A stretch of DNA of 19,675 nt. Origin: a virus (taxonomy: Duplodnaviria > Heunggongvirae > Uroviricota > Caudoviricetes). The notes beneath the pieces are model-generated. The model was not told the origin of the DNA and searched no databases. It worked only from the letters and a program-made list of their open reading frames with translations. Shown piece after piece: positions 1 to 19,675 of the stretch. The stretch's first letter is position 1. The number at the start of each line of letters is the position of its first letter. Made by a program: the position numbers and the translations under genes. Location of the stretch: the IMG/VR virus record IMGVR_UViG_2706794670_000001. One strand, 5' to 3'.

Positions 1-257
1 GGTTATCGCTCGCCACGGGAATATCTGCGGCAGCGGGCTTGTAATGGGTTAAGTGATAACAGATGTCTGGAAATATAGGGGCAAATCCAATCGTCGCCGT
101 ATTCCCGTATTAACAGAGACCGTAGCCCGACGGGGAACTCCTTCTGCGCGAGTGTGCGGGAATAATCAAAAACGATGCACACCGGGGTTACCGGGTACAC
201 ATATTTCATCATGCCAGCGAGTCCGGTTCTGGCACGGAAGAAACCGGACGTTATGAT

Positions 258-668
258 TTAGTGCGGAAATATTTGTGTAGTGTTCTGTATGTTCTCAGTA
301 AAGAGTAATGAATTATCAAAGGTATAGTAATACCTTTTGTTTTCGTGGATATTTGTAATCCATCTGAAAACCCCTGCTGTAGCAAGATTTTTCCTGTATT
401 CGTAAAATGATAACTCTCCTGATTTGAATCCTTTTAAGGTGGCTTCTATAAGGCATTTATTTTTTGAAAATCTTACATTTACAACCTTACCCTGTCCTTT
501 TATTAAAACCGTATTATCGTTTTCAAGAACAAGATGAATATTCTCTGTGGCTAAATAGTAAATGTAATGTGAGACATTGTGACGTTTTAGTTCAGAATAA
601 AACCAGTGATAGTTTAAATTATTTCGCACTTTATCGAATATTTGTTTAAAAATGGCAACCTGAGCCAT
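258..668 (-). CDS. hypothetical protein (136 aa), AT-rich cos-proximal moron; possibly YbcV-like (DUF1398), unverified
   Basis: Minus-strand ORF with stop at 258-260. The track starts it at 683 (141 aa), but the second in-frame ATG at 668 is preceded by GGAAGG about 7 nt upstream, whereas the first ATG has no Shine-Dalgarno, so I prefer 668. Coding region is roughly 30% GC against ~55% for the structural genes. No hydrophobic segment, so probably cytoplasmic. Family assignment is from memory only. Confidence 0.55.
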
Positions 669-725
669 TGTAGTACCTTCCATGTGATATGAGGGGGCGT
701 AGTCTGCACGATTATCTAAATTGCT

Positions 726-959
726 TCAATCTGGTCTAACCTGTTTTCTGAGCAATTCAGTAATGTCACTCTTTTCTTTGTTTGCTTCAGGCGAAACTCT
801 TTTTTCTGAGCACAGTCTCCGGCGGCAGGCTTCAATGACCCAGGCTGAGAAATTCCCGGACCCTTTTTGAACAAGAGCGATGTTAATTTGTTCAATCATT
901 TGGTTAGGAAAGCGGATGTTGCGGGTTGTTGTTCTGCGGGTTCTGTTCTTCGTTGACAT
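726..959 (-). CDS. small basic protein (77 aa) with ribbon-helix-helix-like N-terminus; resembles YlcI/DUF3950-type proteins found next to cos in lambdoid prophages
   Basis: Minus-strand ORF, ATG at 959-957, stop TGA at 728-726. The Arg/Thr-rich N-terminal tail followed by NIRFPNQMIEQINIALVQKG...FSAWVIEACRRRL has a strand-helix-helix pattern typical of Arc/MetJ/CopG folds. Lies ~200 bp left of cosN, upstream of the 136-aa ORF on the same strand. Confidence 0.6.
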   Translation of the reverse strand: MSTKNRTRRTTTRNIRFPNQMIEQINIALVQKGSGNFSAWVIEACRRRLCSEKRVSPEANKEKSDITELLRKQVRPD

Positions 960-1158
960 GAGGTTGCCCTGTATTCAGTGTCGCTGATTTGTATTGTCTG
1001 AAGTTGTTTTTACGTTAAGTTGATGCAGATCAATTAATACGATACCTGCGTCATAATTGATTATTTGACGTGGTTTGATGGCGTAGATGCACGTTGTGAC
1101 ATGTAGATGATAATTATTATCATTTTGCGGGTCCTTTCCGGCGATCCGACAGGTTACG

Positions 1159-1170
1159 GGGCGGAAGGCG
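1159..1170. other. cosN cohesive-end 12-mer (variant): GGGCGGAAGGCG
   Basis: The flanks ...CCGACAGGTTACG on the left and CGCGGGTTTTCGCTATTTATGA on the right match the lambda right-end and left-end sequences as I recall them. The 12 nt between them occupy the position of the lambda cohesive end. Confidence 0.6.
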
Positions 1171-1347: not shown

Positions 1348-1867
1348 ATGGAAGTCAACAAAAAGCAGCTGGCTGACATTTTCGGTGCGAGTATCCGTAC
1401 CATTCAGAACTGGCAGGAACAGGGAATGCCCGTTCTGCGAGGCGGTGGCAAGGGTAATGAGGTGCTTTATGACTCTGCCGCCGTTATAAGATGGTATGCC
1501 GAAAGGGATGCTGAAATTGAGAACGAAAAGCTGCGCCGGGAAGTTGAAGAACTGCGGCAGGCCAGCGAGACAGATCTCCAGCCAGGGACTATTGAGTACG
1601 AACGCCATCGACTTACGCGTGCGCAGGCCGACGCACAGGAGCTGAAAAATGCCAGAGACTCCGCTGAAGTGGTGGAAACCGCATTCTGTACTTTCGTGCT
1701 GTCGCGGATCGCAGGTGAAATTGCCAGTATTCTCGACGGGATCCCCCTGTCGGTGCAGCGGCGTTTTCCGGAACTGGAAAACCGACATGTTGATTTCCTG
1801 AAACGGGATATCATCAAAGCCATGAACAAAGCAGCCGCGCTGGATGAACTGATACCGGGGTTGCTGA

Positions 1868-1893
<26 letters not shown>
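1348..1893 (+). CDS. nu1: terminase small subunit gpNu1
   Basis: 181-aa ORF beginning MEVNKKQLADIFGASIRTIQNWQEQGMPVL, which matches lambda Nu1 in sequence and length. Stop TAA at 1891-1893; overlaps the start of A. Confidence 0.95.
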
Positions 1894-5595
<3,702 letters not shown>

Positions 5596-5615
<20 letters not shown>

Positions 5616-6915
5616 TCTCCCGCATATTGCCAGCATGGCTTTTAATGAGCCGCTGATGCTTGAACCCGCCTATGCGCGGGTTTTCTTTTGTGCGCTTGCA
5701 GGCCAGCTTGGGATCAGCTGCCTGACGGATGCAGTATCCGGCGACAGCCTGACTGCCGGAGAGGCACCCGCGGCGCTGGCGTTATCCGGTGATGATGACG
5801 GACCACGACAGGCCCGCAGTTATCAGGTAATGAACGGCATCGCCGTGCTGCCGGTGTCCGGCACGCTGGTCAGCCGGACGCGGGCGCTGCAGCCGTACTC
5901 GGGGATGACCGGTTACAACGGCATTATCGCCCGTCTGCAACAGGCTGCCAGCGACCCGATGGTGGACGGCATTCTGCTCGATATGGACACACCGGGCGGA
6001 ATGGTGGCGGGAGCATTTGACTGCGCTGACATCATCGCCCGTGTGCGTGACATAAAGCCGGTATGGGCGCTGGCCAATGACATGAACTGCAGCGCAGGTC
6101 AGCTGCTTGCCAGTGCCGCCTCCCGGCGTCTGGTCACGCAGACCGCCCGGACAGGCTCCATCGGCGTCATGATGGCTCACAGTAATTACGGCGCTGCACT
6201 GGAGAAACAGGGCGTGGAAATCACGCTGATTTACAGCGGCAGCCATAAGGTGGATGGCAACCCCTACAGCCATCTACCGGATGATGTCCGGGAAACATTG
6301 CAGTCCCGGATGGATGCAACCCGCCGGATGTTTGCACAGAAGGTGTCGGCATATACCGGCCTGTCCGTGCAGGCTGTGCTGGATACCGAGGCTGCAGTGT
6401 ACAGCGGTCAGGAGGCCATTGATGCCGGACTGGCTGATGAACTTGTTAACAGTACCGATGCGATCACCGTCATGCGTGATGCACTGGATGCACGTAAATC
6501 CCGTCTCTCAGGAGGGCGAATGACCAAAGAGACTCAATCAACAACTGTTTCAGCCACTGCTTCGCAGGCTGACGTTACTGGCGTGGTGCAAGCGACGGAG
6601 GGCGAGAACGCCAGCGCGGCGCAGCCGGACGTGAACGCGCAGATCACCGCAGCGGTTGCGGCAGAAAACAGTCGCATTATGGGGATCCTCAACTGTGAGG
6701 AGGCTCACGGACGCGAAGAACAGGCACGCGTGCTGGCCGAAACCCCCGGTATGACCGTGGAAACGGCCCGCCGTATTCTGGCCGCAGCACCACAGAGTGC
6801 ACAGACGCGCAGTGACACTGCGCTGGATCGTCTGATGCAGGGGGCACCGGCACCGCTGGCTGCAGGTAACCCGGCATCTGATGCCGTTAACGATTTGCTG
6901 AACACACCAGTGTAA
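5596..6915 (+). CDS. C: head maturation protease / scaffold gpC
   Basis: GTG start at 5596 preceded by GAGGAGGAGAAG, overlapping the last 20 nt of B. Translation (M)TAELRNLPHIASMAFNEPLMLEP... is 439 aa. The track ORF begins further upstream at 5461, but that extension lies inside B coding sequence and is rejected. Confidence 0.9.
6310..6915 (+). CDS. nu3: scaffolding protein gpNu3 (in-frame internal start within C)
   Basis: Internal ATG at 6310 in the C frame gives MDATRRMFAQKVSAYTGLSV... of 201 aa sharing the C stop, which is the lambda C/Nu3 nested arrangement. Confidence 0.75.
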   Translation: MDATRRMFAQKVSAYTGLSVQAVLDTEAAVYSGQEAIDAGLADELVNSTDAITVMRDALDARKSRLSGGRMTKETQSTTVSATASQADVTGVVQATEGENASAAQPDVNAQITAAVAAENSRIMGILNCEEAHGREEQARVLAETPGMTVETARRILAAAPQSAQTRSDTALDRLMQGAPAPLAAGNPASDAVNDLLNTPV

Positions 6916-6924
6916 GGGATGTTT

Positions 6925-7257
6925 ATGACGAGCAAAGAAACCTTTACCCATTACCAGCCGCTGGGCAATAGTGACCCGGCTCATACCGCAACCGCGCCCG
7001 GCGGATTGAGTGCGAAAGCGCCTGCAATGACCCCGCTGATGCTGGACACCTCCACCCGTAAGCTGGTTGCGTGGGATGGCACCACCGACGGTGCTGCCGT
7101 TGGCATTCTTGCGGTTGCTGCTGACCAGACCAGCACCACACTGACGTTCTACAAGTCCGGCACGTTCCGTTATGAGGATGTGCTCTGGCCGGAGGCTGCC
7201 AGCGACGAGACGAAAAAACGGACCGTGTTTGCCGGAACGGCAATCAGCATCGTTTAA
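6925..7257 (+). CDS. D: head decoration protein gpD
   Basis: [27 protein letters not shown]... of 110 aa. AAGGGA Shine-Dalgarno 5 nt upstream of the ATG at 6925; the track start at 6919 adds two residues and is less likely. Confidence 0.92.
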
Positions 7258-7274
7258 CTTTACCCTTCATCACT

Positions 7275-7299
7275 AAAGGCCGCCTGTGTGGCTTTTTTT
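7275..7299 (+). terminator. terminator-like stem-loop plus T7 run in the D-E intergenic region
   Basis: aaaggccgcctgtgtggcttttttt: a GC-rich stem (ggccgc / gtggc with one G-U pair) with a 4-nt loop and flanking A-tract and T-tract, between the D stop and the E start. Confidence 0.4.
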
Positions 7300-7312
7300 A
7301 CGGGATTTTTTT

Positions 7313-8338
7313 ATGTCGATGTACACAACCGCCCAGCTGCTGGCGGCAAATGAGCAGAAATTTAAGTTTGATCCGCTGTTTCTGCGTCTCTTTTTCCGTG
7401 AGAGCTATCCCTTCACTACGGAGAAAGTCTATCTCTCACAAATTCCGGGACTGGTAAACATGGCGCTGTACGTTTCGCCGATTGTTTCCGGTGAGGTTAT
7501 CCGTTCCCGTGGCGGCTCCACCTCTGAATTTACGCCGGGATATGTCAAACCCAAGCATGAGGTGAATCCGCAGATGACCCTGCGTCGCCTGCCGGATGAA
7601 GATCCGCAGAATCTGGCGGACCCGGCTTACCGCCGCCGTCGCATCATCATGCAGAACATGCGTGACGAAGAGCTGGCCATTGCTCAGGTCGAAGAGATGC
7701 AGGCAGTTTCTGCCGTGCTCAAGGGCAAATACACCATGACCGGTGAAGCCTTCGATCCGGTTGAGGTGGATATGGGCCGCAGTGCGGCGAACAACATCAC
7801 ACAGTCCGGCGTCACGGAGTGGAGCAAGCGTGACAAGTCCACGTATGACCCGACCGACGATATCGAAGCCTACGCGCTGAACGCCAGCGGTGTGGTGAAT
7901 ATCATCGTGTTTGACCCGAAAGGCTGGGCGCTGTTCCGTTCCTTCAAAGCCGTCAAGGAGAAGCTGGATACCCGTCGCGGCTCTCATTCCGAGCTGGAGA
8001 CAGCGGTAAAAGACCTGGGCAAAGCGGTGTCCTATAAGGGAATGTATGGCGATGTGGCCATCGTCGTGTATTCCGGACAGTACGTGGAAAACGGCGTCAA
8101 AAAGAACTTCCTGCCGGACAACACGATGGTGCTGGGGAACACTCAGGCTCGCGGTCTGCGCACCTATGGCTGCATTCAGGATGCGGACGCACAGCGCGAA
8201 GGCATTAACGCTTCTGCCCGTTACCCGAAAAACTGGGTGACCACCGGCGATCCGGCGCGTGAGTTCACCATGATTCAGTCAGCACCGCTGATGCTGCTGG
8301 CTGATCCTGATGAGTTCGTGTCCGTTCAACTGGCGTAA
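7313..8338 (+). CDS. E: major capsid protein gpE
   Basis: MSMYTTAQLLAANEQKFKFDPLFLRLFFRESYPFTTEKVYLSQIPGLVNMALYVSPIV... of 341 aa, matching lambda gpE with a few substitutions. The track start at 7286 is an in-frame upstream extension that is rejected. Confidence 0.95.
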   Translation: MSMYTTAQLLAANEQKFKFDPLFLRLFFRESYPFTTEKVYLSQIPGLVNMALYVSPIVSGEVIRSRGGSTSEFTPGYVKPKHEVNPQMTLRRLPDEDPQNLADPAYRRRRIIMQNMRDEELAIAQVEEMQAVSAVLKGKYTMTGEAFDPVEVDMGRSAANNITQSGVTEWSKRDKSTYDPTDDIEAYALNASGVVNIIVFDPKGWALFRSFKAVKEKLDTRRGSHSELETAVKDLGKAVSYKGMYGDVAIVVYSGQYVENGVKKNFLPDNTMVLGNTQARGLRTYGCIQDADAQREGINASARYPKNWVTTGDPAREFTMIQSAPLMLLADPDEFVSVQLA

Positions 8339-8340
8339 TC

Positions 8341-8370
8341 ATGGCCCTTCGGGGCCATTTTCTCTCTGTG
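8341..8370 (+). terminator. perfect hairpin immediately after the E stop (intra-operon terminator-like or RNA-stability element)
   Basis: atggccc-ttcg-gggccat is a 7-bp perfect inverted repeat with a TTCG tetraloop at 8341-8358, followed by the pyrimidine-rich tract tttctctctgtg. It starts 3 nt after the E stop codon. Confidence 0.5.
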
Positions 8371-8379
8371 GAGGAGTTC

Positions 8380-8778
8380 ATGACGAAAGATGAACTGATT
8401 GCCCGTCTTCAGGAGCTGGGTGAGCAATTGAACCGCGATGTCAGTTTGACGGGAACGAAAGAAGAACTGGCGCTTCGTGTGGCAGAGCTGGAAGAAGAGC
8501 TTGATGACACGGATGAAACTGCCGGTCAGGACACCCCTCTCAGCCGGGAAAATGTGCTGACCGGGCATGAAAATGAGGTGGTATCAGCGCAGCCGGATAC
8601 CGTGATTCAGGATACGGCTGAACTGGTCACGGTCGTGGCACTGGTGACGCTGCATACTGATGCACTTCACGCCACGCGGGATAAACCTGTGGCATTTGTG
8701 CTGCCGGGAACGGCGTTTCGTGTCTCTGCCGGTGTGGCAGCCGAAATGACAGAGCGCGGCCTGGCCAGAATGCAATAA
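8380..8778 (+). CDS. FI: DNA packaging / head completion protein gpFI
   Basis: MTKDELIARLQELGEQLNRDVSLTGTKEELALRVAELEEELDD... of 132 aa. GGAGGAG Shine-Dalgarno upstream of the ATG at 8380. Confidence 0.9.
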   Translation: MTKDELIARLQELGEQLNRDVSLTGTKEELALRVAELEEELDDTDETAGQDTPLSRENVLTGHENEVVSAQPDTVIQDTAELVTVVALVTLHTDALHATRDKPVAFVLPGTAFRVSAGVAAEMTERGLARMQ

Positions 8779-8789
8779 CGGGAGGCGCT

Positions 8790-9143
8790 GTGGCTGATTT
8801 CGATAACCTGTTCGATGCTGCCATTGCCCGCGCCGATGAAACGATACGCGGGTACATGGGAACGTCAGCCACCATGACATCCGGTGAGCAGTCAGGTGCG
8901 GTGATACGTGGTGTTTTTGATGACCCTGAAAATATCAGCTATGCCGGACAGGGCGTGCGCGTTGAAGGCTCCAGCCCGTCCCTGTTTGTCCGGACTGATG
9001 AGGTGCGGCAGCTGCGGCGTGGAGACACGCTGACCATCGGTGAGGAAAATTTCTGGGTAGATCGGGTTTCGCCGGATGATGGCGGAAGTTGTCATCTCTG
9101 GCTTGGACGGGGCGTACCGCCTGCCGTTAACCGTCGCCGCTGA
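8790..9143 (+). CDS. FII: head-tail connector protein gpFII
   Basis: GTG start at 8790 preceded by GGGAGG. Translation (M)ADFDNLFDAAIARADETIRGYMGTSATMTSGEQ... of 117 aa. Confidence 0.9.
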   Translation: MADFDNLFDAAIARADETIRGYMGTSATMTSGEQSGAVIRGVFDDPENISYAGQGVRVEGSSPSLFVRTDEVRQLRRGDTLTIGEENFWVDRVSPDDGGSCHLWLGRGVPPAVNRRR

Positions 9144-9154
9144 AAGGGGGATGT

Positions 9155-9586
9155 ATGGCCATAAAAGGTCTTGAGCAGGCCGTTGAAAACCTCAGCCGTA
9201 TCAGCAAAACGGCGGTGCCCGGTGCCGCCGCAATGGCCATTAACCGCGTTGCTTCATCCGCGANNNNNNNNNNNNNNNNNNNNNNNNNNNNNNNNNNNNN
9301 NNNNNNNNNNNNNNNNNNNNNNNNNNNNNNNNNNNNNNNNNNNNNNNNNNNNNNNNNNNNNNNNNNNNNNNNNNNNNNNNNNNNNNNNNNNNNNNNNNNN
9401 NNNNNNNNNNNNNNNNNNNNNNNNNNNNNNNNNNNNNNNNNNNNNNNNNNNNNNNNNNNNNNNNNNNNNNNNNNNNNNNNNNNNNNNNNNNNNNNNNNNN
9501 NNNNNNNNNNNNNNNNNNNNNNNNGTCTTCCGAAAGAGCTGGGCTATGCGCTGCAGCATCAACTGAGAATGGTAATAAAGCGATGA
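9155..9586 (+). CDS. Z: tail completion protein gpZ (spans N-run 9264-9524; true length unknown)
   Basis: N-terminus MAIKGLEQAVENLSRISKTAVPGAAAMAINRVASSA and C-terminus [19 protein letters not shown] flank the N-run in one frame. The stop overlaps the U start (ATGA). Confidence 0.85.
   Translation: MAIKGLEQAVENLSRISKTAVPGAAAMAINRVASSAXXXXXXXXXXXXXXXXXXXXXXXXXXXXXXXXXXXXXXXXXXXXXXXXXXXXXXXXXXXXXXXXXXXXXXXXXXXXXXXXXXXXXXXXLPKELGYALQHQLRMVIKR
9264..9524. other. run of N (261 nt) inside Z
   Basis: Directly visible in the sequence. Confidence 1.
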
Positions 9587-9978
9587 AACATACTGAACTC
9601 CGTGCAGCCGTACTGGATGCACTGGAGAAGCATGACACCGGGGCGACGCTTTTTGATGGTCGCCCCGCTGTTTTTGATGAGGAAGATTTTCCGGCAATTG
9701 CCGTTTATCTCACCGGCGCTGAATACACGGGCGAAGAGCTGGACAGCGATACCTGGCAGGCGGAGCTGCATATTGAAGTTTTCCTGCCTGCTCAGGTGCC
9801 GGATTCAGAGCTGGATTCGTGGATGGAGTCCCGGATTTATCCTGTGATGAGCGATATCCCGGCACTGTCAGATTTGATCACCAGTATGGTGGCCAGCGGC
9901 TATGACTACCGGCGCGACGATGATGCGGGCCTGTGGAGTTCAGCCGATCTGACTTATGTCATTATCTATGAAATGTGA
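9583..9978 (+). CDS. U: tail terminator protein gpU
   Basis: [53 protein letters not shown]... of 131 aa. Confidence 0.92.
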
Positions 9979-9985
9979 GGACGCT

Positions 9986-10726
9986 ATGCCTGTACCAAAT
10001 CCTACAATGCCGGTGAAAGGTGCCGGGACCACCCTGTGGGTTTATAAGGGGAGCGGTGACCCTTATGCGAACCCGCTTTCAGACGTTGACTGGTCGCGTC
10101 TGGCAAAAGTTAAAGACCTGACGCCCGGCGAACTGACCGCTGAGTCCTATGACGACAGCTATCTCGATGATGAAGATGCAGACTGGACTGCGACCGGGCA
10201 GGGGCAGAAATCTGCCGGAGATACCAGCTTCACGCTGGCGTGGATGCCCGGAGAGCAGGGGCAGCAGGCGCTGCTGGCGTGGTTTAATGAAGGTGATACC
10301 CGTGCCTATAAAATCCGCTTCCCGAACGGCACGGTCGATGTGTTCCGTGGCTGGGTCAGCAGTATCGGTAAGGCGGTGACGGCGAAGGAGGTGATTACCC
10401 GCACGGTGAAGGTCACCAATGTGGGACGTCCGTCGATGGCAGAAGATCGCAGCACGGTGACGGCGACGACCGGCATGACGGTGACACCCGCCAGTGCTTC
10501 CGTAGTGAAAGGGCAGAGCACCACGCTGACCGTGGCATTCCAGCCGGATGGCGCAACCGACAAGAGCTTCCGTGCGGTGTCTGCGGATAAAACAAAAGCC
10601 ACCGTGTCGGTCAGTGGTATGACCATCACCGTGAAAGGTGTTGCTGCAGGCAAGGTCAACATTCCGGTCGTATCTGGTAATGGTGAGTTTGCTGCGGTTG
10701 CAGAAATCAACGTCACCGCCAGTTAA
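9986..10726 (+). CDS. V: major tail tube protein gpV
   Basis: [50 protein letters not shown]... of 246 aa with an Ig-like C-terminal region. The track start at 9956 is in U coding sequence and is rejected. Confidence 0.95.
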
Positions 10727-10741
10727 TCCGGAGAGTCAGCG

Positions 10742-11164
10742 ATGTTCCTGAAAACCGAATCATTTGAACATAACGGTGTGACCGTCACGCTTTCTGAACT
10801 GTCAGCCCTGCAGCGTATTGAGCATCTCGACCTGATGAAACGGCAGGCAGAACAGGCGGAGTCAGACAGCAACCGGAAGTTTACTGTGGAAGACGCCATC
10901 AGAACCGGCGCTTTTGTGGTTGCGATGTCCCTGTGGCATAACCATCCGAAGAAGACGCAGATGCCGTCCATGAATGAAGCCGTTAAACAGATTGAGCAGG
11001 AAGTGCTTACCACCTGGCCCACAGAGGCAATTTCTCATGCTGAAAACGTGGTGTACCGGCTGTCCGGTATGTATGAGTTTGTGGTGAATGATGCTCCTGA
11101 ACAGGCAGAGGACGCCGGGCCTGCAGAGCCTGTTTCTGCGGGAAAGTGTTCGACGGTGAGCTGA
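10742..11164 (+). CDS. G: tail assembly chaperone gpG
   Basis: MFLKTESFEHNGVTVTLSELSALQRIEHLDLMKRQAEQAESD... of 140 aa, ending just after the slippery site. Confidence 0.9.
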   Translation: MFLKTESFEHNGVTVTLSELSALQRIEHLDLMKRQAEQAESDSNRKFTVEDAIRTGAFVVAMSLWHNHPKKTQMPSMNEAVKQIEQEVLTTWPTEAISHAENVVYRLSGMYEFVVNDAPEQAEDAGPAEPVSAGKCSTVS

Positions 11165-11580
11165 GTTTTGCCCTGAAACTGGCGCGTGAGATGGGGCGAC
11201 CCGACTGGCGCGCCATGCTTGCCGGGATGTCATCCACGGAGTATGCCGACTGGCACCGCTTTTACAGTACCCATTATTTTCATGATGTTCTGCTGGATAT
11301 GCACTTTTCCGGGCTGACGTACACCGTGCTCAGCCTGTTTTTCAGCGATCCGGAGATGCATCCGCTGGATTTCAGTCTGCTGAACCGGCGCGAGGCTGAC
11401 GAAGAGCCTGAAGATGATGTGCTGATGCAGAAAGCGGCAGGGCTTGCCGGAGGTGTCCGCTTTGGCCCGGACGGGAATGAAGTTATCCCCGCTTCCCCGG
11501 ATGTGGCGGACATGACGGAGGATGACGTAATGCTGATGACAGTATCAGAAGGGATCGCAGGAGGAGTCCGGTATGGCTGA
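10742..11580 (+). CDS. T: tail assembly chaperone gpG-T fusion (via -1 frameshift near 11146)
   Basis: The -1 frame ORF 11146-11580 (...FDGELSFALKLAREMGRPDWRAMLAGMSSTEYADWHRFY...) has no independent start context and terminates at TGA 11578-11580, overlapping the H start. This is the conserved G/T arrangement upstream of a tape measure gene. Confidence 0.8.
11140..11146 (+). promoter_or_regulatory. programmed -1 ribosomal frameshift slippery heptamer G_GGA_AAG (G to G-T)
   Basis: The heptamer GGGAAAG sits in the G frame as G-GGA-AAG, six codons before the G stop. The -1 frame is open from here to 11580 and ends at the H start. Confidence 0.8.
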
Positions 11581-14095
11581 ACCGGTAGGCGATCTGGTCG
11601 TTGATTTGAGTCTGGATGCGGCCAGATTTGACGAGCAGATGGCCAGAGTCAGGCGTCATTTTTCCGGTACGGAAAGTGATGCGAAAAAAACAGCGGCNNN
11701 NNNNNNNNNNNNNNNNNNNNNNNNNNNNNNNNNNNNNNNNNNNNNNNNNNNNNNNNNNNNNNNNNNNNNNNNNNNNNNNNNNNNNNNNNNNNNNNNNNNN
11801 NNNNNNNNNNNNNNNNNNNNNNNNNNNNNNNNNNNNNNNNNNNNNNNNNNNNNNNNNNNNNNNNNNNNNNNNNNNNNNNNNNNNNNNNNNNNNNNNNNNN
11901 NNNNNNNNNNNNNNNNNNNNNNNNNNNNNNNNNNNNNNNNNNNNNNNNCACCTCGCTGGCGGTGGCGACCGGTGCGCTGGCGTATGCCTGGTATCAGGGC
12001 AACTCAACCCTGTCCGATTTCAACAAAACGCTGGTCCTTTCCGGTAATCAGGCGGGACTGACGGCAGATCGTATGCTGGTCCTGTCCAGAGCCGGGCAGG
12101 CGGCAGGGCTGACGTTTAACCAGACCAGCGAGTCACTCAGCGCACTGGTTAAGGCGGGGGTAAGCGGTGAGGCTCAGATTGCGTCCATCAGCCAGAGTGT
12201 GGCGCGTTTCTCCTATGCATCCGGCGTGGAGGTGGACAAGGTCGCTGAAGCCTTCGGGAAGCTGACCACAGACCCGACGTCGGGGCTGACGGCGATGGCA
12301 CGCCAGTTCCATAACGTGACGGCGGAGCAGATTGCGTATGTTGCTCAGTTGCAGCGTTCCGGCGATGAAGCCGGGGCATTGCAGGCGGCGAACGAGGCCG
12401 CAACGAAAGGGTTTGATGACCAGACCCGCCGCCTGAAAGAGAACATGGGCACGCTGGAGACCTGGGCAGACAGGACTGCACGTGCATTCAAATCCATGTG
12501 GGATGCGGTGCTGGATATTGGTCGTCCTGATACCGCGCAGGAGATGCTGATTAAGGCAGAGGCTGCGTTTAAGAAAGCAGACGACATCTGGAATCTGCGC
12601 AAGGATGATTATTTCGTTAACGATGAAGCACGGGCGCGTTACTGGGATGATCGTGAAAAAAAACGCCTGGAGCGGGATGCAGCCCAAAAGAGGGTAGATC
12701 AACAGCGTCAACAGGACAAAAATGCGCAGCAGCAGAGCGATACCGAAGCGTCACGGCTGAAATATACCGAAGAGGCGCAGAAGGCTTACGAACGGCTGCA
12801 GACGCCGCTGGAGAAATATACCGCCCGTCAGGAAGAACTGAACAAGGCACTGAAAGACGGAAAAATCCTGCAGGCAGATTACAACACGCTGATGGCGGCG
12901 GCGAAAAAGGATTATGAAGCGACGCTGAAAAAGCCGAAACAGTCCGGCGTGAAGGTGTATGCGGGCGATCGTCAGGAAGACAGTGCTCATGCGGCCCTGC
13001 TGACGCTTCAGGCAGAACTCCGGACGCTGGAGAAGCATGCCGGAGCGAATGAGAAAATCAGCCAGCAGCGCCGGGATTTGTGGAAGGCAGAAAGTCAGTT
13101 CGCGGTACTGGAGGAGGCGGCACAACGTCGCCAGCTGTCCGCACAGGAGAAATCCCTGCTGGCGCATAAAGACGAGACGCTGGAGTACAAACGCCAGCTG
13201 GCTGCACTTGGTGACAAGGTTACGTATCAGGAGCACCTGAATGCGCTGGCGCAGCAGGCGGATAAATTCGCACAGCAGCAACGGGCAAAACGGGCAGCCA
13301 TTGATGCGAAAAACCGGGGGCTGACTGACCGGCAGGCAGCGCGGGAAGCCACGGAACAGCGCCTGAAGGAACAGTATGGCGATAATCCTCTGGCGCTGAA
13401 TAACGTCATGTCAGAGCAGAAAAAGACCTGGGCGGCTGAAGACCAGCTTCGCGGGAGCTGGATGGCAGGCCTGAAGTCCGGCTGGAGTGAGTGGGAAGAG
13501 AGCGCCACGGACAGTATGTCACAGGTTAAAAGTGCAGCCACGCAGACCTTTGATGGTATTGCACAGAATATGGCGGCGATGCTGACCGGCANNNNNNNNN
13601 NNNNNNNNNNNNNNNNNNNNNNNNNNNNNNNNNNNNNNNNNNNNNNNNNNNNNNNNNNNNNNNNNNNNNNNNNNNNNNNNNNNNNNNNNNNNNNNNNNNN
13701 NNNNNNNNNNNNNNNNNNNNNNNNNNNNNNNNNNNNNNNNNNNNNNNNNNNNNNNNNNNNNNNNNNNNNNNNNNNNNNNNNNNNNNNNNNNNNNNNNNNN
13801 NNNNNNNNNNNNNNNNNNNNNNNNNNNNNNNNNNNNNNNNNATCTCTACCGGCTGATGCGCGGCTATGCGGAAGGTGGTTATGTGGGCGGTGCCGGAAGT
13901 CCGGCGCAGATGCGGCGGGCTGAAGGCATTAATTTTAATCAGAACAATCACGTGGTGATTCAGAACGACGGTACGAATGGTCTGCCAGGTCCACAGATGA
14001 TGAAGGCCGTGTATGACATGGCCCGCAAGGGTGCCCGTGATGAAATTCAGACACAGATGCGTGATGGTGGCCTGTTCTCCGGAGGTGGACGATGA
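11573..14095 (+). CDS. H: tail tape measure protein gpH (spans N-runs 11698-11948 and 13592-13841; apparent frame changes at both)
   Basis: N-terminus MAEPVGDLVVDLSLDAARFDEQMARVRRHFSGTESDAKKTA, a long middle segment TSLAVATGALAYAWYQGNSTLSDFNKTLVLSGNQAGL...AQNMAAMLTG, and C-terminus NLYRLMRGYAEGGYVGG...MRDGGLFSGGGR. The three segments are in different frames relative to one another across the N-runs. Stop TGA at 14093-14095 overlaps the M start. Confidence 0.9.
11698..11948. other. run of N (251 nt) inside H
   Basis: Directly visible in the sequence. Confidence 1.
13592..13841. other. run of N (250 nt) inside H
   Basis: Directly visible in the sequence. Confidence 1.
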
Positions 14096-14421
14096 AAACC
14101 TTCCGCTGGAAAGTGAAACCCGGTATGGATGTGGCTTCGGCCCCTTCTGTAAGAAAGGTGCGCTTTGGTGATGGCTATTCCCAGCGAGCGCCTGCCGGGC
14201 TGAATGCCAACCTGAAAACGTACAGCGTGACGCTTTCTGTCCCCCGTGAGGAGGCCATGGTACTGGAGTCGTTTCTGGAAGAGCACGGGGGCTGGAAAGC
14301 CTTTCTGTGGACGCCGCCTTATGAGTGGCGGCAGATAAAGGTGACCTGCGCAAAATGGTCGTCGCGGGTCAGTATGCTGCGTGTTGAGTTCAGCGCAGAG
14401 TTTGAACAGGTGGTGAACTGA
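14092..14421 (+). CDS. M: minor tail protein gpM
   Basis: MKTFRWKVKPGMDVASAPSVRKVRFGDGYSQRAPAGLNANLKTYSVTLSVP... of 109 aa. Confidence 0.92.
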   Translation: MKTFRWKVKPGMDVASAPSVRKVRFGDGYSQRAPAGLNANLKTYSVTLSVPREEAMVLESFLEEHGGWKAFLWTPPYEWRQIKVTCAKWSSRVSMLRVEFSAEFEQVVN

Positions 14422-15020
14422 TGCAGGATATCCGGCAGGAAACACTGAATGAATGCACCCGTGCGGAGCAGTCGGCCAGCGTGGTGCTCTGGGAAATCGA
14501 TCTGACAGAGGTCGGTGGAGAACGTTATTTTTTCTGTAATGAGCAGAACGAAAAAGGTGAGCCGGTCACCTGGCAGGGGCGACAGTATCAGCCGTATCCC
14601 ATTCAGGGGAGTGGTTTTGAACTGAATGGCAAAGGCACCAGTACGCGCCCCACGCTGATGGTTTCTAACCTGTACGGTATGGTCACCGGGATGGCGGAAG
14701 ATCTACAGAGTCTGGTCGGCGGAACGGTGGTCCGGCGTAAGGTTTACGCCCGTTTTCTGGATGCGGTGAACTTCGTCAACGGAAACAGTGACGCCGATCC
14801 GGAGCAGGAGGTGATCAGCCGCTGGCGCATTGAGCAGTGCAGCGAACTGAGCGCGGTGAGTGCCTCTTTTGTACTGTCCACGCCGACGGAAACAGATGGC
14901 GCTGTTTTTCCGGGACGTATCATGCTGGCCAACACCTGCACCTGGACCTATCGCGGCGATGAGTGCGGTTATCACGGTCCGGCGGTCGCGGATGAATATG
15001 ACCAGCCAACGTCCGATATC
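14421..15020 (+). CDS. L: minor tail protein gpL (3' end hidden in N-run 15021-15279)
   Basis: MQDIRQETLNECTRAEQSASVVLWEIDLTEVGGERYFFCNEQNEKGEPVTWQGRQYQPYP... The ATG overlaps the M stop. About 200 codons are visible before the N-run. Confidence 0.88.
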
Positions 15021-15279
15021 NNNNNNNNNNNNNNNNNNNNNNNNNNNNNNNNNNNNNNNNNNNNNNNNNNNNNNNNNNNNNNNNNNNNNNNNNNNNNNNN
15101 NNNNNNNNNNNNNNNNNNNNNNNNNNNNNNNNNNNNNNNNNNNNNNNNNNNNNNNNNNNNNNNNNNNNNNNNNNNNNNNNNNNNNNNNNNNNNNNNNNNN
15201 NNNNNNNNNNNNNNNNNNNNNNNNNNNNNNNNNNNNNNNNNNNNNNNNNNNNNNNNNNNNNNNNNNNNNNNNNNNNNNN
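15021..15279. other. run of N (259 nt) covering the L/K junction
   Basis: Directly visible in the sequence. Confidence 1.
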
Positions 15280-15897
15280 CCGGAGGCGTATTTCCGTATG
15301 TCGCCGGAAGACTGGCTGCAGGCAGAGATGCAGGGTGAGATTGTGGCACTGGTCCACAGCCACCCCGGTGGTCTGCCCTGGCTGAGTGAGGCCGACCGGC
15401 GGCTGCAGGTGCAGAGTGATTTGCCGTGGTGGCTGGTCTGCCGGGGGGCGATTCACAAGTTCCGCTGTGTGCCACATCTTACCGGGCGGCGCTTTGAGCA
15501 CGGGGTGACGGACTGTTACACGCTGTTCCGGGATGCTTACCATCTGGCGGGGATTGAGATGCCGGATTTTCATCGTGAGGATGACTGGTGGCGTCACGGT
15601 CAGAATCTCTATCTGGATAATCTGGAGGCCACAGGGCTGTATCAGGTGCCGTTGTCAGCGGCGCAGCCGGGCGATGTGCTGCTGTGCTGTTTTGGTTCAT
15701 CGGTGCCGAATCATGCCGCCATTTACTGTGGTGACGGCGAGCTGCTGCACCATATTCCTGAACAACTGAGCAAACGAGAGAGGTATACCGACAAATGGCA
15801 GCGACGCACACACTCCCTCTGGCGTCACCGGGCATGGCACGCATCTGCCTTTACGGGGATTTGCAACGATTTGGCCGCCGCATCGACCTTCGTGTGA
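15280..15897 (+). CDS. K: tail assembly protein gpK (5' end hidden in N-run)
   Basis: Visible from PEAYFRMSPEDWLQAEMQGEIVALVHSHPGGLPWLSEADRR... to ...ASAFTGICNDLAAASTFV. The HSHPGG motif fits the JAB/MPN-type domain known for lambda K. Stop TGA at 15895-15897. Confidence 0.88.
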   Translation, partial: PEAYFRMSPEDWLQAEMQGEIVALVHSHPGGLPWLSEADRRLQVQSDLPWWLVCRGAIHKFRCVPHLTGRRFEHGVTDCYTLFRDAYHLAGIEMPDFHREDDWWRHGQNLYLDNLEATGLYQVPLSAAQPGDVLLCCFGSSVPNHAAIYCGDGELLHHIPEQLSKRERYTDKWQRRTHSLWRHRAWHASAFTGICNDLAAASTFV

Positions 15898-16466
15898 AAA
15901 CGGGTGCCGAAGCCATCCGGGCGATGGCCACACAGCTCCCTGCGTTTCGTCAGAAGCTGAGCGACGGCTGGTATCAGGTGCGTATTGCCGGGCAGGATGT
16001 TAGCACGTCCGGATTAACGGCACAGTTACATGAGGCTCTGCCTGACGGCGCTGTGATTCATATTGTTCCCAGAGTCGCCGGGGCCAAGTCAGGTGGTGTA
16101 TTCCAGATTGTCCTGGGAGCAGCCGCCATTGCCGGATCATTCTTTACCGCCGGAGCCACCCTTGCAGCATGGGGGGCTGCCATTGGTGCCGGTGGTATGA
16201 CCGGCATTCTGTTTTCTCTCGGTGCCAGTATGGTGCTCGGCGGTGTGGCTCAGATGCTGGCACCGAAAGCCAGAACTCCCCGCACACAGACAACGGATAA
16301 CGGTAAGCAGAACACCTATTTCTCCTCACTGGATAACATGGTTGCCCAGGGCAATGTTATGCCTGTTCTGTATGGTGAAATGCGCGTGGGGTCACGTGTG
16401 GTATCTCAGGAGATCAGCACGGCAGACGAAGGGGACGGTGGTCAGGTTGTGGTGATTGGTCGCTGA
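15795..16466 (+). CDS. I: tail assembly protein gpI
   Basis: MAATHTLPLASPGMARICLYGDLQRFGRRIDLRVKTGAEAIRAMATQLPAFRQKL... of 223 aa. Starts inside the 3' end of K in another frame, as in lambda. Confidence 0.9.
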   Translation: MAATHTLPLASPGMARICLYGDLQRFGRRIDLRVKTGAEAIRAMATQLPAFRQKLSDGWYQVRIAGQDVSTSGLTAQLHEALPDGAVIHIVPRVAGAKSGGVFQIVLGAAAIAGSFFTAGATLAAWGAAIGAGGMTGILFSLGASMVLGGVAQMLAPKARTPRTQTTDNGKQNTYFSSLDNMVAQGNVMPVLYGEMRVGSRVVSQEISTADEGDGGQVVVIGR

Positions 16467-16526
16467 TGCAAAATGTTTTATGTGAAATCGCCTCCGGGCG
16501 GTTTTATCGTTTATGGAGCATGACGA

Positions 16527-19500
16527 ATGGGTAAAGGCAGCAGTAAGGGGCATACCCCGCGCGAAGCGAAGGACAACCTGAAGTCCACGCAGCTGCTGAG
16601 TGTGATCGATGCCATCAGCGAAGGGCCGGTTGAAGGTCCGGTGGATGGATTAAAAAGCGTGCTGCTGAACAGTACGCCGGTGCTGGACAGTGAGGGGAAT
16701 ACCAACATCTCCGGCGTCACGGTGGTGTTCCGGGCAGGTGAGCAGGAGCAGTCACCGCCGGAGGGATTTGAATCCTCCGGCTCCGAGACGGTGCTGGGTA
16801 CGGAAGTGAAATATGACACGCCGATCACCCGGACCATCACGTCGGCAAACATTGACCGACTGCGTTTTACCTTCGGTGTACAGGCACTGGTGGAAACCAC
16901 CTCAAAGGGAGACAGGAATCCGTCTGAAGTTCGCCTGCTGGTTCAGATACAGCGTAACGGTGGCTGGGTGACGGAAAAAGACATCACCATTAAGGGCAAA
17001 ACCACCTCGCAGTATCTGGCCTCGGTGGTGGTGGATAACCTGCCGCCGCGCCCGTTTAATATCCGGATGCGCAGAATGACGCCGGACAGCACCACAGACC
17101 AGCTGCAGAACAAAACGCTCTGGTCGTCATACACCGAAATCATCGATGTGAAACAGTGCTACCCGAACACGGCACTGGTCGGCGTACAGGTGGATTCGGA
17201 GCAGTTCGGCAGCCAGCAGGTGAGCCGTAATTATCATCTTCGCGGGCGCATTCTGCAGGTGCCGTCGAACTATAATCCGCAGACGCGGCAATACAGCGGT
17301 ATCTGGGACGGAACGTTAAAACCGGCATACAGCAACAACATGGCCTGGTGTCTGTGGGATATGCTGACCCATCCGCGCTATGGCATGGGGAAACGTCTTG
17401 GTGCGGCAGATGTGGATAAATGGGCGCTGTATGTCATCGGCCAGTACTGTGACCAGTCGGTGCCGGACGGCTTTGGCAGCACGGAGCCGCGCATCACCTG
17501 TAATGCCTGGCTGACCACACAGCGCAAGGCGTGGGATGTGCTCAGTGATTTCTGCTCGGCGATGCGCTGTATGCCGGTATGGAACGGGCAGACGCTGACG
17601 TTCGTGCAGGACCGACAGTCGGATAAGGTGTGGGCCTATAACCGCAGTAATGTGGTGATGCCGGATGATGGCGCGCCGTTCCGCTACAGTTTCAGCGCCC
17701 TGAAAGACCGCCATAATGCCGTTGAGGTGAACTGGATTGACCCGGATAACGGCTGGGAGACGGCGACAGAGCTTGTGGAGGATACGCAGGCCATTGTCCG
17801 TTACGGTCGTAACGTCACGAAGATGGATGCCTTTGGCTGTACCAGCCGGGGGCAGGCACACCGCGCCGGGCTGTGGCTGATTAAAACGGAACTGCTGGAG
17901 ACGCAGACCGTGGATTTCAGCGTGGGTGCTGAAGGGCTTCGTCATGTACCGGGCGATGTCATTGAAATCTGCGATGATGACTATGCCGGTATCCGCACCG
18001 GCGGGCGCGTGCTGGCGGTGAACAGCCAGACCCGGACGCTGACGCTCGACCGTGAAATCACGCTGCCATCCTCCGGCACCACGCTGATAAGCCTGGTTGA
18101 CGGGCAGGGGAATCCGGTCAGCGTGGAGGTCCAGTCCGTCACCGACGGCGTGAAGGTAAAAGTGAGCCGTGTTCCTGACGGTGTTGCTGAATACAGCGTG
18201 TGGGGGCTGAAGCTGCCGACGCTGCACCAGCGATTGTTCCGCTGCGNNNNNNNNNNNNNNNNNNNNNNNNNNNNNNNNNNNNNNNNNNNNNNNNNNNNNN
18301 NNNNNNNNNNNNNNNNNNNNNNNNNNNNNNNNNNNNNNNNNNNNNNNNNNNNNNNNNNNNNNNNNNNNNNNNNNNNNNNNNNNNNNNNNNNNNNNNNNNN
18401 NNNNNNNNNNNNNNNNNNNNNNNNNNNNNNNNNNNNNNNNNNNNNNNNNNNNNNNNNNNNNNNNNNNNNNNNNNNNNNNNNNNNNNNNNNNNNNNNGCTG
18501 ACAGTCCGGGCAGTAAATGCGTGGGGGCAGCAGGGCGATCCGGCGTCGGTATCGTTCCGGATTGCCGCACCGGCAGCGCTGTCGCGGATTGAGCTGACGC
18601 CGGGCTATTTTCAGATAACCGCCACGCCGCATCTTGCGGTTTATGATCCGACGGTACAGTTTGAGTTCTGGTTCTCGGAAAAGCGGATTGCGGATATCAG
18701 GCAGGTTGAAACCACAGCACGCTATCTTGGCACGGCGCTGTACTGGATAGCCGCCAGTATCAATATCAAACCGGGCCATGATTATTACTTTTATATCCGC
18801 AGTGTGAACACCGTTGGCAAATCGGCATTCGTGGAGGCTGTTGGTCAGCCGAGTGATGATGCATCCGGTTATCTGGATTTTTTCAAAGGCGAGATAGGGA
18901 AAACCCATCTGGCTCAGGAGCTGTGGACGCAGATTGATAACGGTCAGCTTGCGCCTGACCTGGCTGAAATCAGGACGTCCATTACGGATGTCAGCAATGA
19001 AATCACGCAGACCGTCAATAAGAAACTGGAAGACCAGAGTGCGGCAATTCAGCAGATACAGAAGGTTCAGGTTGATACAAATAATAACCTGAACAGCATG
19101 TGGGCTGTGAAGCTGCAGCAGATGCAGGACGGACGCCTTTATATCGCGGGTATTGGTGCCGGTATTGAGAACACCCCTGACGGCATGCAGAGTCAGGTGC
19201 TGCTGGCGGCGGACAGGATTGCGATGGTTAATCCTGCGAATGGCAACACAAAACCGATGTTTGTTGGTCAGGGCGATCAGATATTCATGAACGACGTGTT
19301 CCTGAAACGCCTGACGGCCCCCACCATTACCAGCGGTGGAAATCCATCGGCATTTTCCCTGACTCCGGACGGAAAGCTGACCGCTAAAAATGCGGATATC
19401 AGTGGCAGTGTGAATGCGAACGCCGGGACGCTCAACAATGTCACGGTAAATGAAAACTGTACGATTAAGGGCATGCTGGAGGCGACTCAGGTCAGAGGTG

Positions 19501-19675
19501 ACTTCGTTAAAGCTGTATCCAAATCATTTCCGAAACAGGCTGGTACGTGGGGTAACACGGAAACACCAAACGGGACGGTTACAGTCACCATAAGCGATGA
19601 TCATAACTTTGACCGCCAGATTATTATTCCGCCCATTATTTTTAACGGTATAGCGTATGACGATCCGGGGAGCGG
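16527..19675 (+). CDS. J: tail tip / central tail fibre protein gpJ, 3'-partial (spans N-run 18247-18496; continues beyond window)
   Basis: ATG at 16527 with GGAG 7 nt upstream. Translation [34 protein letters not shown]... stays open in frame to the last base of the window, and the frame is continuous across the N-run. The N-terminal ~570 codons are near-identical to lambda J as recalled. Confidence 0.93.
18247..18496. other. run of N (250 nt) inside J
   Basis: Directly visible in the sequence. Confidence 1.

Follow-up and report, generated by a model that had tools for sequence, protein, structure and literature searches.

The window analysed here is the whole 19,675-nucleotide stretch of DNA, and the genes of interest lie near its left end. 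The order along the window is a DUF1398 gene, a 57-nt spacer, a gene of the YlcI/YnfO family, an AT-rich region, a cos-like site and Nu1. This Nu1 gene, which starts at 1348, is of the nohA type and matches Pfam Phage_Nu1 at E=2e-101. The features of the region are given below; those at 676..681, 729..745 and 1159..1170 come from sequence reading.

221..249, either strand: GC-rich hairpin GTCCGGTT...AACCGGAC, beginning 9 nt past the stop codon of the DUF1398 gene
258..668, minus strand: coding sequence of a DUF1398 protein (YbcV/YdfO/lambda p78 type), 136 aa, 31.4% GC
676..681, minus strand: Shine-Dalgarno sequence GGAAGG, separated by 7 nt from the ATG at 668
711..738, minus strand: sigma-70-like promoter candidate TAGACC-16-GATAAT, 9 of 12 matches in a consensus scan
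726..959, minus strand: YlcI/YnfO-family (DUF3950) gene, 77 aa, upstream of the DUF1398 gene and co-oriented with it
729..745, plus strand: PdhR-box-like sequence ATCTGGTCTAACCTGTT, overlapping the -35 candidate
1029..1061: 13-nt inverted repeat ATCAATTAATACG / CGTCATAATTGAT, 70-100 nt 5' of the ylcI-like start, found by repeat search
1159..1170, plus strand: presumed cosN equivalent, GGGCGGAAGGCG then CGCGGGTTTTCGCTATTTATGA

We take 1159..1170 to be the cosN equivalent by comparison with the lambda left-end sequence. This site would put the cassette at the very right end of the packaged genome, which is where lambda has it. A near-perfect palindrome, GATGATAATTATTATCAT, is located at 1106-1123, just left of the cos-like site; for this palindrome and for the inverted repeat at 1029-1061, a packaging signal or an operator are possible roles. 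At the other end of the region, a partial ORF at 3..212 on the minus strand matches the C-terminal ends of two PHROGs that have no assigned function, and nothing else. In E. coli, matches to the region mostly start at position 90. Bases 1-89 are common to only a few genomes, and in those an IS3 transposase gene or a 'chaperone of endosialidase' gene is nearby. The window also contains six runs of N, of 250-266 nt each and 1537 N in total (3152-3417, 9264-9524, 11698-11948, 13592-13841, 15021-15279 and 18247-18496). They break late genes, terminase A included, and have the appearance of intentional masking, not of gaps in the assembly.

A first-pass annotation, made from the sequence, had called a strongly AT-rich ORF of 136 aa at 258-668, antisense to the late operon. 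This ORF is present on the minus strand and has a Shine-Dalgarno sequence at ATG 668. The longest ORF of the same minus-strand gene starts from ATG 683 and has 141 aa; since the Shine-Dalgarno sequence marks ATG 668 and only that ATG, the 136-aa start is favoured. The same GGAAGG is kept 5' of ydfO, ybcV and lambda p78, and in near-identical genomes the RefSeq annotation gives the protein 136 aa. The base composition agrees with the estimate of about 30% GC, some 25 points below the morphogenesis genes: the ORF has 31.4% GC (GC3, 30.9%) as compared with 52.7% for Nu1 and 56.7% for positions 1348-19675 of the window. Low GC (31-33%) is maintained in all DUF1398 alleles that were compared. The gene is on the strand opposite to Nu1 (1348..1893, plus strand), terminase A (from 1868) and the other lambda-like late genes. 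Its product is a soluble, basic protein of 16 kDa (pI 9.4) that is rich in Tyr, Asn and Lys, as had been described (N 15, L 12, K 11, and I, F and Y 10 each). No membrane segment or signal peptide was found by hydropathy, the maximum 19-residue Kyte-Doolittle mean being 0.39. In pairwise comparisons of the window gene with lambda p78, ybcV and ydfO, dN/dS was 0.21-0.35 (dS 0.38-0.67), which indicates purifying selection on the protein. Because of this ratio and because the structure of a homologue has been solved (2HH8), the ORF is a real gene rather than a chance ORF.

The first-pass annotation tentatively noted that the C-terminal stretch resembles YbcV/DUF1398-type proteins, and the profile search that it had proposed bears this out. 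The ORF matches PF07166 (Pfam DUF1398) at E=3e-43 with 147.1 bits against a cut-off of 22, and its residues 8-126 align with positions 1-119 of the 119-position model, that is, with the full model. The NMR structure of YdfO, 2HH8, is matched at E=3e-67 across residues 1-135. The protein has the near-invariant residues Y35, T41, N43, R112 and Y114, which were identified from an entropy profile of 44 non-redundant members, plus the AGVF(K/R)W and DN..L motifs of DUF1398. Searches of Pfam, NCBIfam, PHROG and PADLOC gave no match to another family; NCBIfam and Rfam returned nothing relevant, and the PADLOC-DB defence models gave only a chance-level hit to Csx23 (E=0.023). It is almost certain that the window ORF is a full-length DUF1398 protein and an orthologue-level relative of YdfO, YbcV and lambdap78.

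Structure prediction agrees with this assignment. An AlphaFold model, for which 17 family members were used as input, has a pLDDT of 86 and shows the order helix-helix-strand-strand-strand twice, the tandem alpha2-beta3 duplication seen in 2HH8. According to the solved structure and the model, the protein is a tandem duplication in which four helices accompany a single six-stranded sheet. In sequence, its halves can be aligned in register only weakly, with a marginal hhalign E-value of 0.026. The search for similar structures that had also been suggested found the YdfO-like fold to be an orphan, which is without an informative structural neighbour. The first hairpin holds the near-invariant residues Y35, T41 and N43, the fifth strand holds R112 and Y114, and the helices vary between alleles. 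The near-invariant residues are not typical catalytic ones, and no catalytic motif was found in the protein, in keeping with the first reading.

DUF1398 is a small family: at 50% identity there are 189 representatives among 1.84 billion proteins, and at 90% identity about 1760 clusters. It is almost restricted to enterobacterial mobile DNA. A profile search with an alignment of the window protein and relatives of 21-44% identity (alignment A1) revealed no domain fusions. No molecular activity is assigned to DUF1398 proteins in Pfam, NCBIfam/RefSeq or the literature searched, so that the earlier statement that the family lacks an assigned function holds.

Of 5426 complete E. coli genomes, 2629 (about half) match the 1350-bp region over 80% or more of its length. 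The identity is 98-99% among the matches listed, and mostly 90-99% for the best matches of all records. In matching E. coli genomes the region is annotated as 'DUF1398 domain-containing protein', 'YlcI/YnfO family protein' and nohD. The DUF1398 gene is also found in 43 phage records, six of which have an identical protein (e.g., ev099, Kati and PhiR49_1). In the Qin prophage of K-12, nohA, ynfO, a 57-nt spacer and ydfO follow one another, and the gene order and spacing are identical to those of the window. In sequence and locus the window gene is nearest to that of YdfO, and to lambdap78/YbcV. YdfO of Qin, the protein of 2HH8, is an allelic variant whose differences from the window protein are gathered in helix 1 and in the linker and helix 3 (residues about 58-92). 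Qin is a decayed cryptic prophage, whereas lambda-type morphogenesis genes are present in the window prophage, with the six masked stretches of about 250 nt.

Phage lambda and the DLP12 prophage carry a second arrangement. Their proteins, lambdap78 and YbcV, are 76% identical to the window protein, and their genes are in the slot between the lysis genes and cos, likewise on the strand opposite to late transcription. They share with the window the same Shine-Dalgarno sequence and the proximal upstream block. In contrast to the window, bor or borD lies downstream of the DUF1398 gene, a segment of about 650 bp with ybcW/p79 is located between this gene and the ylcI-type gene, and the ylcI-type product is cut to 64 aa and has a different tail. 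The lambda DUF1398 gene is at 47048-47452, within lambdap78, which RefSeq gives as an ORF of 177 aa with an unsupported N-terminal extension of 42 residues from a GTG. An ylcI-type ORF is found in lambda at 48139-48303 (minus strand), between lambdap79 and cos, where NC_001416 has no feature; 55 aa of it align with the N-terminus of the window YlcI-like protein at 94.5% identity.

Contexts of more distant members were sampled at 25-38% identity. A relative with 29% identity lies between the Q antiterminator and holin genes of another lambdoid prophage, which is the moron slot of the Stx type. One other, a gene of 140 aa, is beside yqeI/yqeJ-type genes and is probably yqeK of the ETT2 island. 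The others sampled are solitary, have long upstream spacers and are beside fimbrial, regulatory or metabolic genes. None of the distant members sampled has a DUF3950 neighbour. E. coli K-12 appears to carry more DUF1398 paralogues outside lambdoid prophages, namely this probable yqeK and ycgX, which adjoins bluR (PMC3509220).

Some database records of the two proteins are of doubtful origin. The record of Campylobacter phage CJLB-4 (MW057783.1, 48361 bp), which has a lambda-like length, contains a lambda-type DUF1398 gene at 46968-47372, at about the lambda coordinate; this record is probably lambda DNA or mislabelled. There are also hundreds of error-laden variants of both proteins (hits P0019-P0048 and P0304-P0400, on ENA contigs of about 3.5 kb). 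They lie on contigs of about 3450-3580 nt or bear labels from unrelated organisms, for example 'Staphylococcus aureus' (P0308 and P0363), 'Bacillus sp.' (P0296) and the spider 'Caerostris extrusa' (P0340). They fit contamination by the lambda right-end control DNA of about 3.6 kb that is used in nanopore sequencing. Such contamination would also explain reports of 'DUF1398' in S. aureus and in a fungus.

The elements that could control the gene were also looked at. The promoter candidate at 711..738 extends over the spacer and the 3' end of the ylcI-like gene, and could drive the DUF1398 gene alone. The block GGT(C/T)AGACCAGATTGAA...GATAAT is shared by ydfO, ybcV and lambda. The region has 4 promoter-like sites, which is not significantly more than the 2.5 +/- 1.6 expected from shuffled sequence. 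The PdhR-box-like sequence at 729..745 resembles the gSELEX PdhR sites at ybcV/ybcW (AtcTGGTctgACCtcTT) and ynfO/ydfO (PMC7660256), and this similarity alone suggests that it may be a PdhR site. It is also at positions 729-745 that the lambda/DLP12 arrangement departs from the Qin type. As RNA, the hairpin at 221..249 has a folding energy of -15.7 kcal/mol (minus strand) or -16.7 kcal/mol (plus strand). It is not a canonical intrinsic terminator, because no U-tract follows it on the minus strand, and a terminator scan did not report it. The inverted repeat at 1029..1061 is a candidate operator.

Homologues of the gene have appeared in several published studies. In a CRISPRi map of the lambda genome, lambdap78 was non-essential, with EOP of 1.9 and 1.3 (PMC10695390), and the ybcV::kan strain of the Keio collection is viable and in routine use (PMC3945230). 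ydfO has been listed as 'essential only by TraDIS' (PMC5821084); this may reflect shielding of AT-rich DNA from insertions by H-NS-type proteins, which is our own reading and not that of PMC5821084. Transcripts of the K-12 homologues respond to several conditions. An imidazolium ionic liquid induced ydfO 12- to 117-fold (PMC4077768). In a pdhR mutant, ybcV mRNA was down 10-fold, and PdhR boxes were reported at ybcV/ybcW and ynfO/ydfO (PMC7660256). A DNase toxin induced ybcVW within 5 min, ybcW-ylcI has been described as a convergent excludon, and a study of adaptive evolution of sabinene tolerance listed ybcV as a candidate gene, its transcript being up about 11-fold (log2FC 3.5). When T4 MotB, which alters H-NS repression, was overexpressed, ybcV and ybcW rose more than 1000-fold (PMC7827196). 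The first-pass annotation had held expression in the lysogen to be plausible. This stands insofar as transcripts of the K-12 homologues are detected and regulated by PdhR, the ionic liquid and the DNase toxin, but the resting state is probably silenced, because ybcV rises more than 1000-fold when MotB disturbs H-NS. In a screen of the ASKA library, cells that overexpressed ybcV were glycogen-deficient (PMC2853380). Resistance to oxidative stress upon YdfO overexpression is reported second-hand through PMC4077768; in the main text of the paper that PMC4077768 cites, ydfO was not found. The glycogen and oxidative-stress phenotypes are screen-derived and not mechanistic.

These observations support the reading that the gene is a moron, as had been claimed from its base composition. 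The moron concept comes from the work of Hendrix and Juhala. The GC content is 31.4% against 56.7%, and it is low in all alleles. The gene is antisense between the lysis cassette and cos, and distant relatives are in the Q-holin moron slot and in chromosomal islands. As for its own promoter and terminator, the weak -35/-10 candidate at 738-711 is conserved among alleles, and the hairpin at 221-249 is without a U-tract. Expression from a prophage is reported for the K-12 homologues only, and dispensability in lytic growth for the lambda homologue only, by CRISPRi (PMC10695390). Comparable genes of lambda are bor and lom, which are likewise accessory and non-essential, sit within or next to the late region, deviate in base composition and are oriented or expressed independently. 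Their products are proteins or lipoproteins of the outer membrane with host phenotypes (such as serum resistance and adhesion), whereas the DUF1398 protein is cytoplasmic. We consider accessory or moron status very likely for the window gene, and we give the identity and this status jointly a probability of about 0.8.

What such a moron might do can be outlined from the conserved residues and from the homologues. It is possible, although on balance doubtful, that the DUF1398 protein is a small, cytoplasmic, non-enzymatic binding protein. Binding rather than catalysis is suggested because the near-invariant residues are not typical catalytic ones and the helices are variable. From the alternation of residues along the strands, Y35, N43, R112 and Y114, and not T41, would probably be on one face of the sheet. 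If this is the face that the helices do not cover, it would form a patch rich in Tyr, Arg and Asn on a basic protein, which may be suited to nucleic acid, a nucleotide or a partner protein. This argument is a weak one and draws on sequence alternation, not on coordinates. By analogy with the homologues, the gene would be largely silent owing to H-NS-type silencing of the 31% GC DNA, with H-NS presumed to bind at the window locus, and owing to convergent late transcription. Particular stresses or relief of silencing would switch it on. Once expressed, the protein would alter host physiology rather than build virions.

A bolder version of the moron reading makes the protein, alone or with a YlcI/YnfO regulator, an unrecognised prophage effector. 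Its sheet face would bind nucleic acid or a nucleotide, and it would act in phage-phage competition (exclusion, defence or counter-defence) once H-NS no longer silences the gene, as might happen when T4 infects and makes MotB. The first-pass annotation had named superinfection exclusion among the frequent roles of genes in this position; PADLOC-DB gave no defence-system match beyond the chance-level one to Csx23. We regard this version as unlikely. If it is true, a gene of lambda that is among the last without an assignment would gain a function.

The neighbouring gene leads to a related proposal. The YlcI-like product matches Pfam PF13132 (E=2e-20) and NCBIfam NF041551 and is 97% identical to YnfO of K-12. 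In alignment A2, its N-terminal 50 aa are conserved and its C-terminal tail is variable. An extended RNIRF segment is followed by helices at 19-32 and 34-52 and then by the variable tail, a pattern that is like ribbon-helix-helix (RHH) proteins. The two genes could be a two-gene module of the toxin-antitoxin or abortive-infection/exclusion type, in which YlcI is a ribbon-helix-helix repressor and antitoxin and its variable tail neutralises a DUF1398 effector. Besides this sequence pattern, several observations are consistent with such a module: the pair is small and co-oriented, 57 nt apart, and kept in Qin, the window and phage ev099; it sits in a prophage accessory slot; an inverted repeat lies 5' of it; and TCP-domain and ParD2 proteins are among the top fold matches of YlcI. 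However, these fold matches are weak and not significant (best E=4.6, from a model with pLDDT 66), no RHH family was found for the YlcI-like product in Pfam even at E<=10, and there was no sequence match in the PDB. Furthermore, strict co-occurrence does not hold, since ybcW/p79 splits the pair in lambda and DLP12, where the YlcI tail is replaced, and the distant DUF1398 genes sampled are solitary, without a DUF3950 neighbour. Strains overexpressing ybcV from the ASKA library were viable and could be scored for glycogen (PMC2853380), knock-down of lambdap78 was without effect (PMC10695390), and PADLOC was silent. A module of this type thus appears improbable.

The labels given to the family in databases lead to yet another reading, in which the DUF1398 protein is a component of the virion or the envelope. 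The window protein matches PHROG 413 (E=2.7e-87), which is labelled 'head protein'. RefSeq NC_001416 names lambdap78 'head protein' as well, and several records have 'putative envelope protein', from older lambda and K-12 annotation. The 'head protein' label has spread to PHROGs and to RefSeq phage records (NC_049953, NC_042057 and others) without an experimental basis. The gene does adjoin the packaging genes. However, it is transcribed against the late operon, its product has neither a signal peptide nor a membrane segment, and structural comparison revealed no resemblance to capsid or envelope proteins. Homologues are in non-phage chromosomal settings, and the labels go back to predictions ('Predicted by GeneMark') that no experiment supports. 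The virion protein set of lambda is well defined and is not known to include the lambdap78 product. In addition, the lambda homologue is non-essential (PMC10695390). Neither 'head protein' nor 'envelope protein' has support as a label, and we give a structural role hardly any credence.

Finally, the two genes might be expressed as one fusion by read-through, because the YlcI-like and DUF1398 ORFs are in one frame, separated by a single TGA (726-728) and a stop-free spacer (684-725), with 14 stop-free codons to ATG 683 and 19 to ATG 668, and because one cluster in the databases, P0014 (233 aa, 761 sequences), corresponds exactly to such a fusion, with W in place of the TGA. Read-through is very improbable: a shared frame has a chance of 1 in 3, a run of 19 codons without a stop is nothing unusual, the DUF1398 ORF is equipped with a start and a Shine-Dalgarno sequence of its own, and the genes are apart in lambda and DLP12. 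W at the TGA is a product of gene callers that apply code 4 or 25 to short metagenome contigs, and all members of P0014 are from such pipelines (sources lgn and ena), so that the cluster is most likely an artefact of this gene calling.

In summary, the accessory reading of the DUF1398 gene is the one that we prefer. The gene, its family, the solved fold and the position are already on record, annotated in thousands of genomes, and the finding has little weight as a discovery, the window ORF being a homologue of phage lambda's own gene. It has a curatorial use: 'head protein' and 'envelope protein' should not be propagated as labels for DUF1398. What it brings out is a conserved gene under purifying selection, in lambda and in roughly every second complete E. 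coli genome, without known activity. A function screen of DUF1398 would be cheap and its target well defined, since a solved structure, a Keio mutant, an ASKA clone and conditions for induction are already available.
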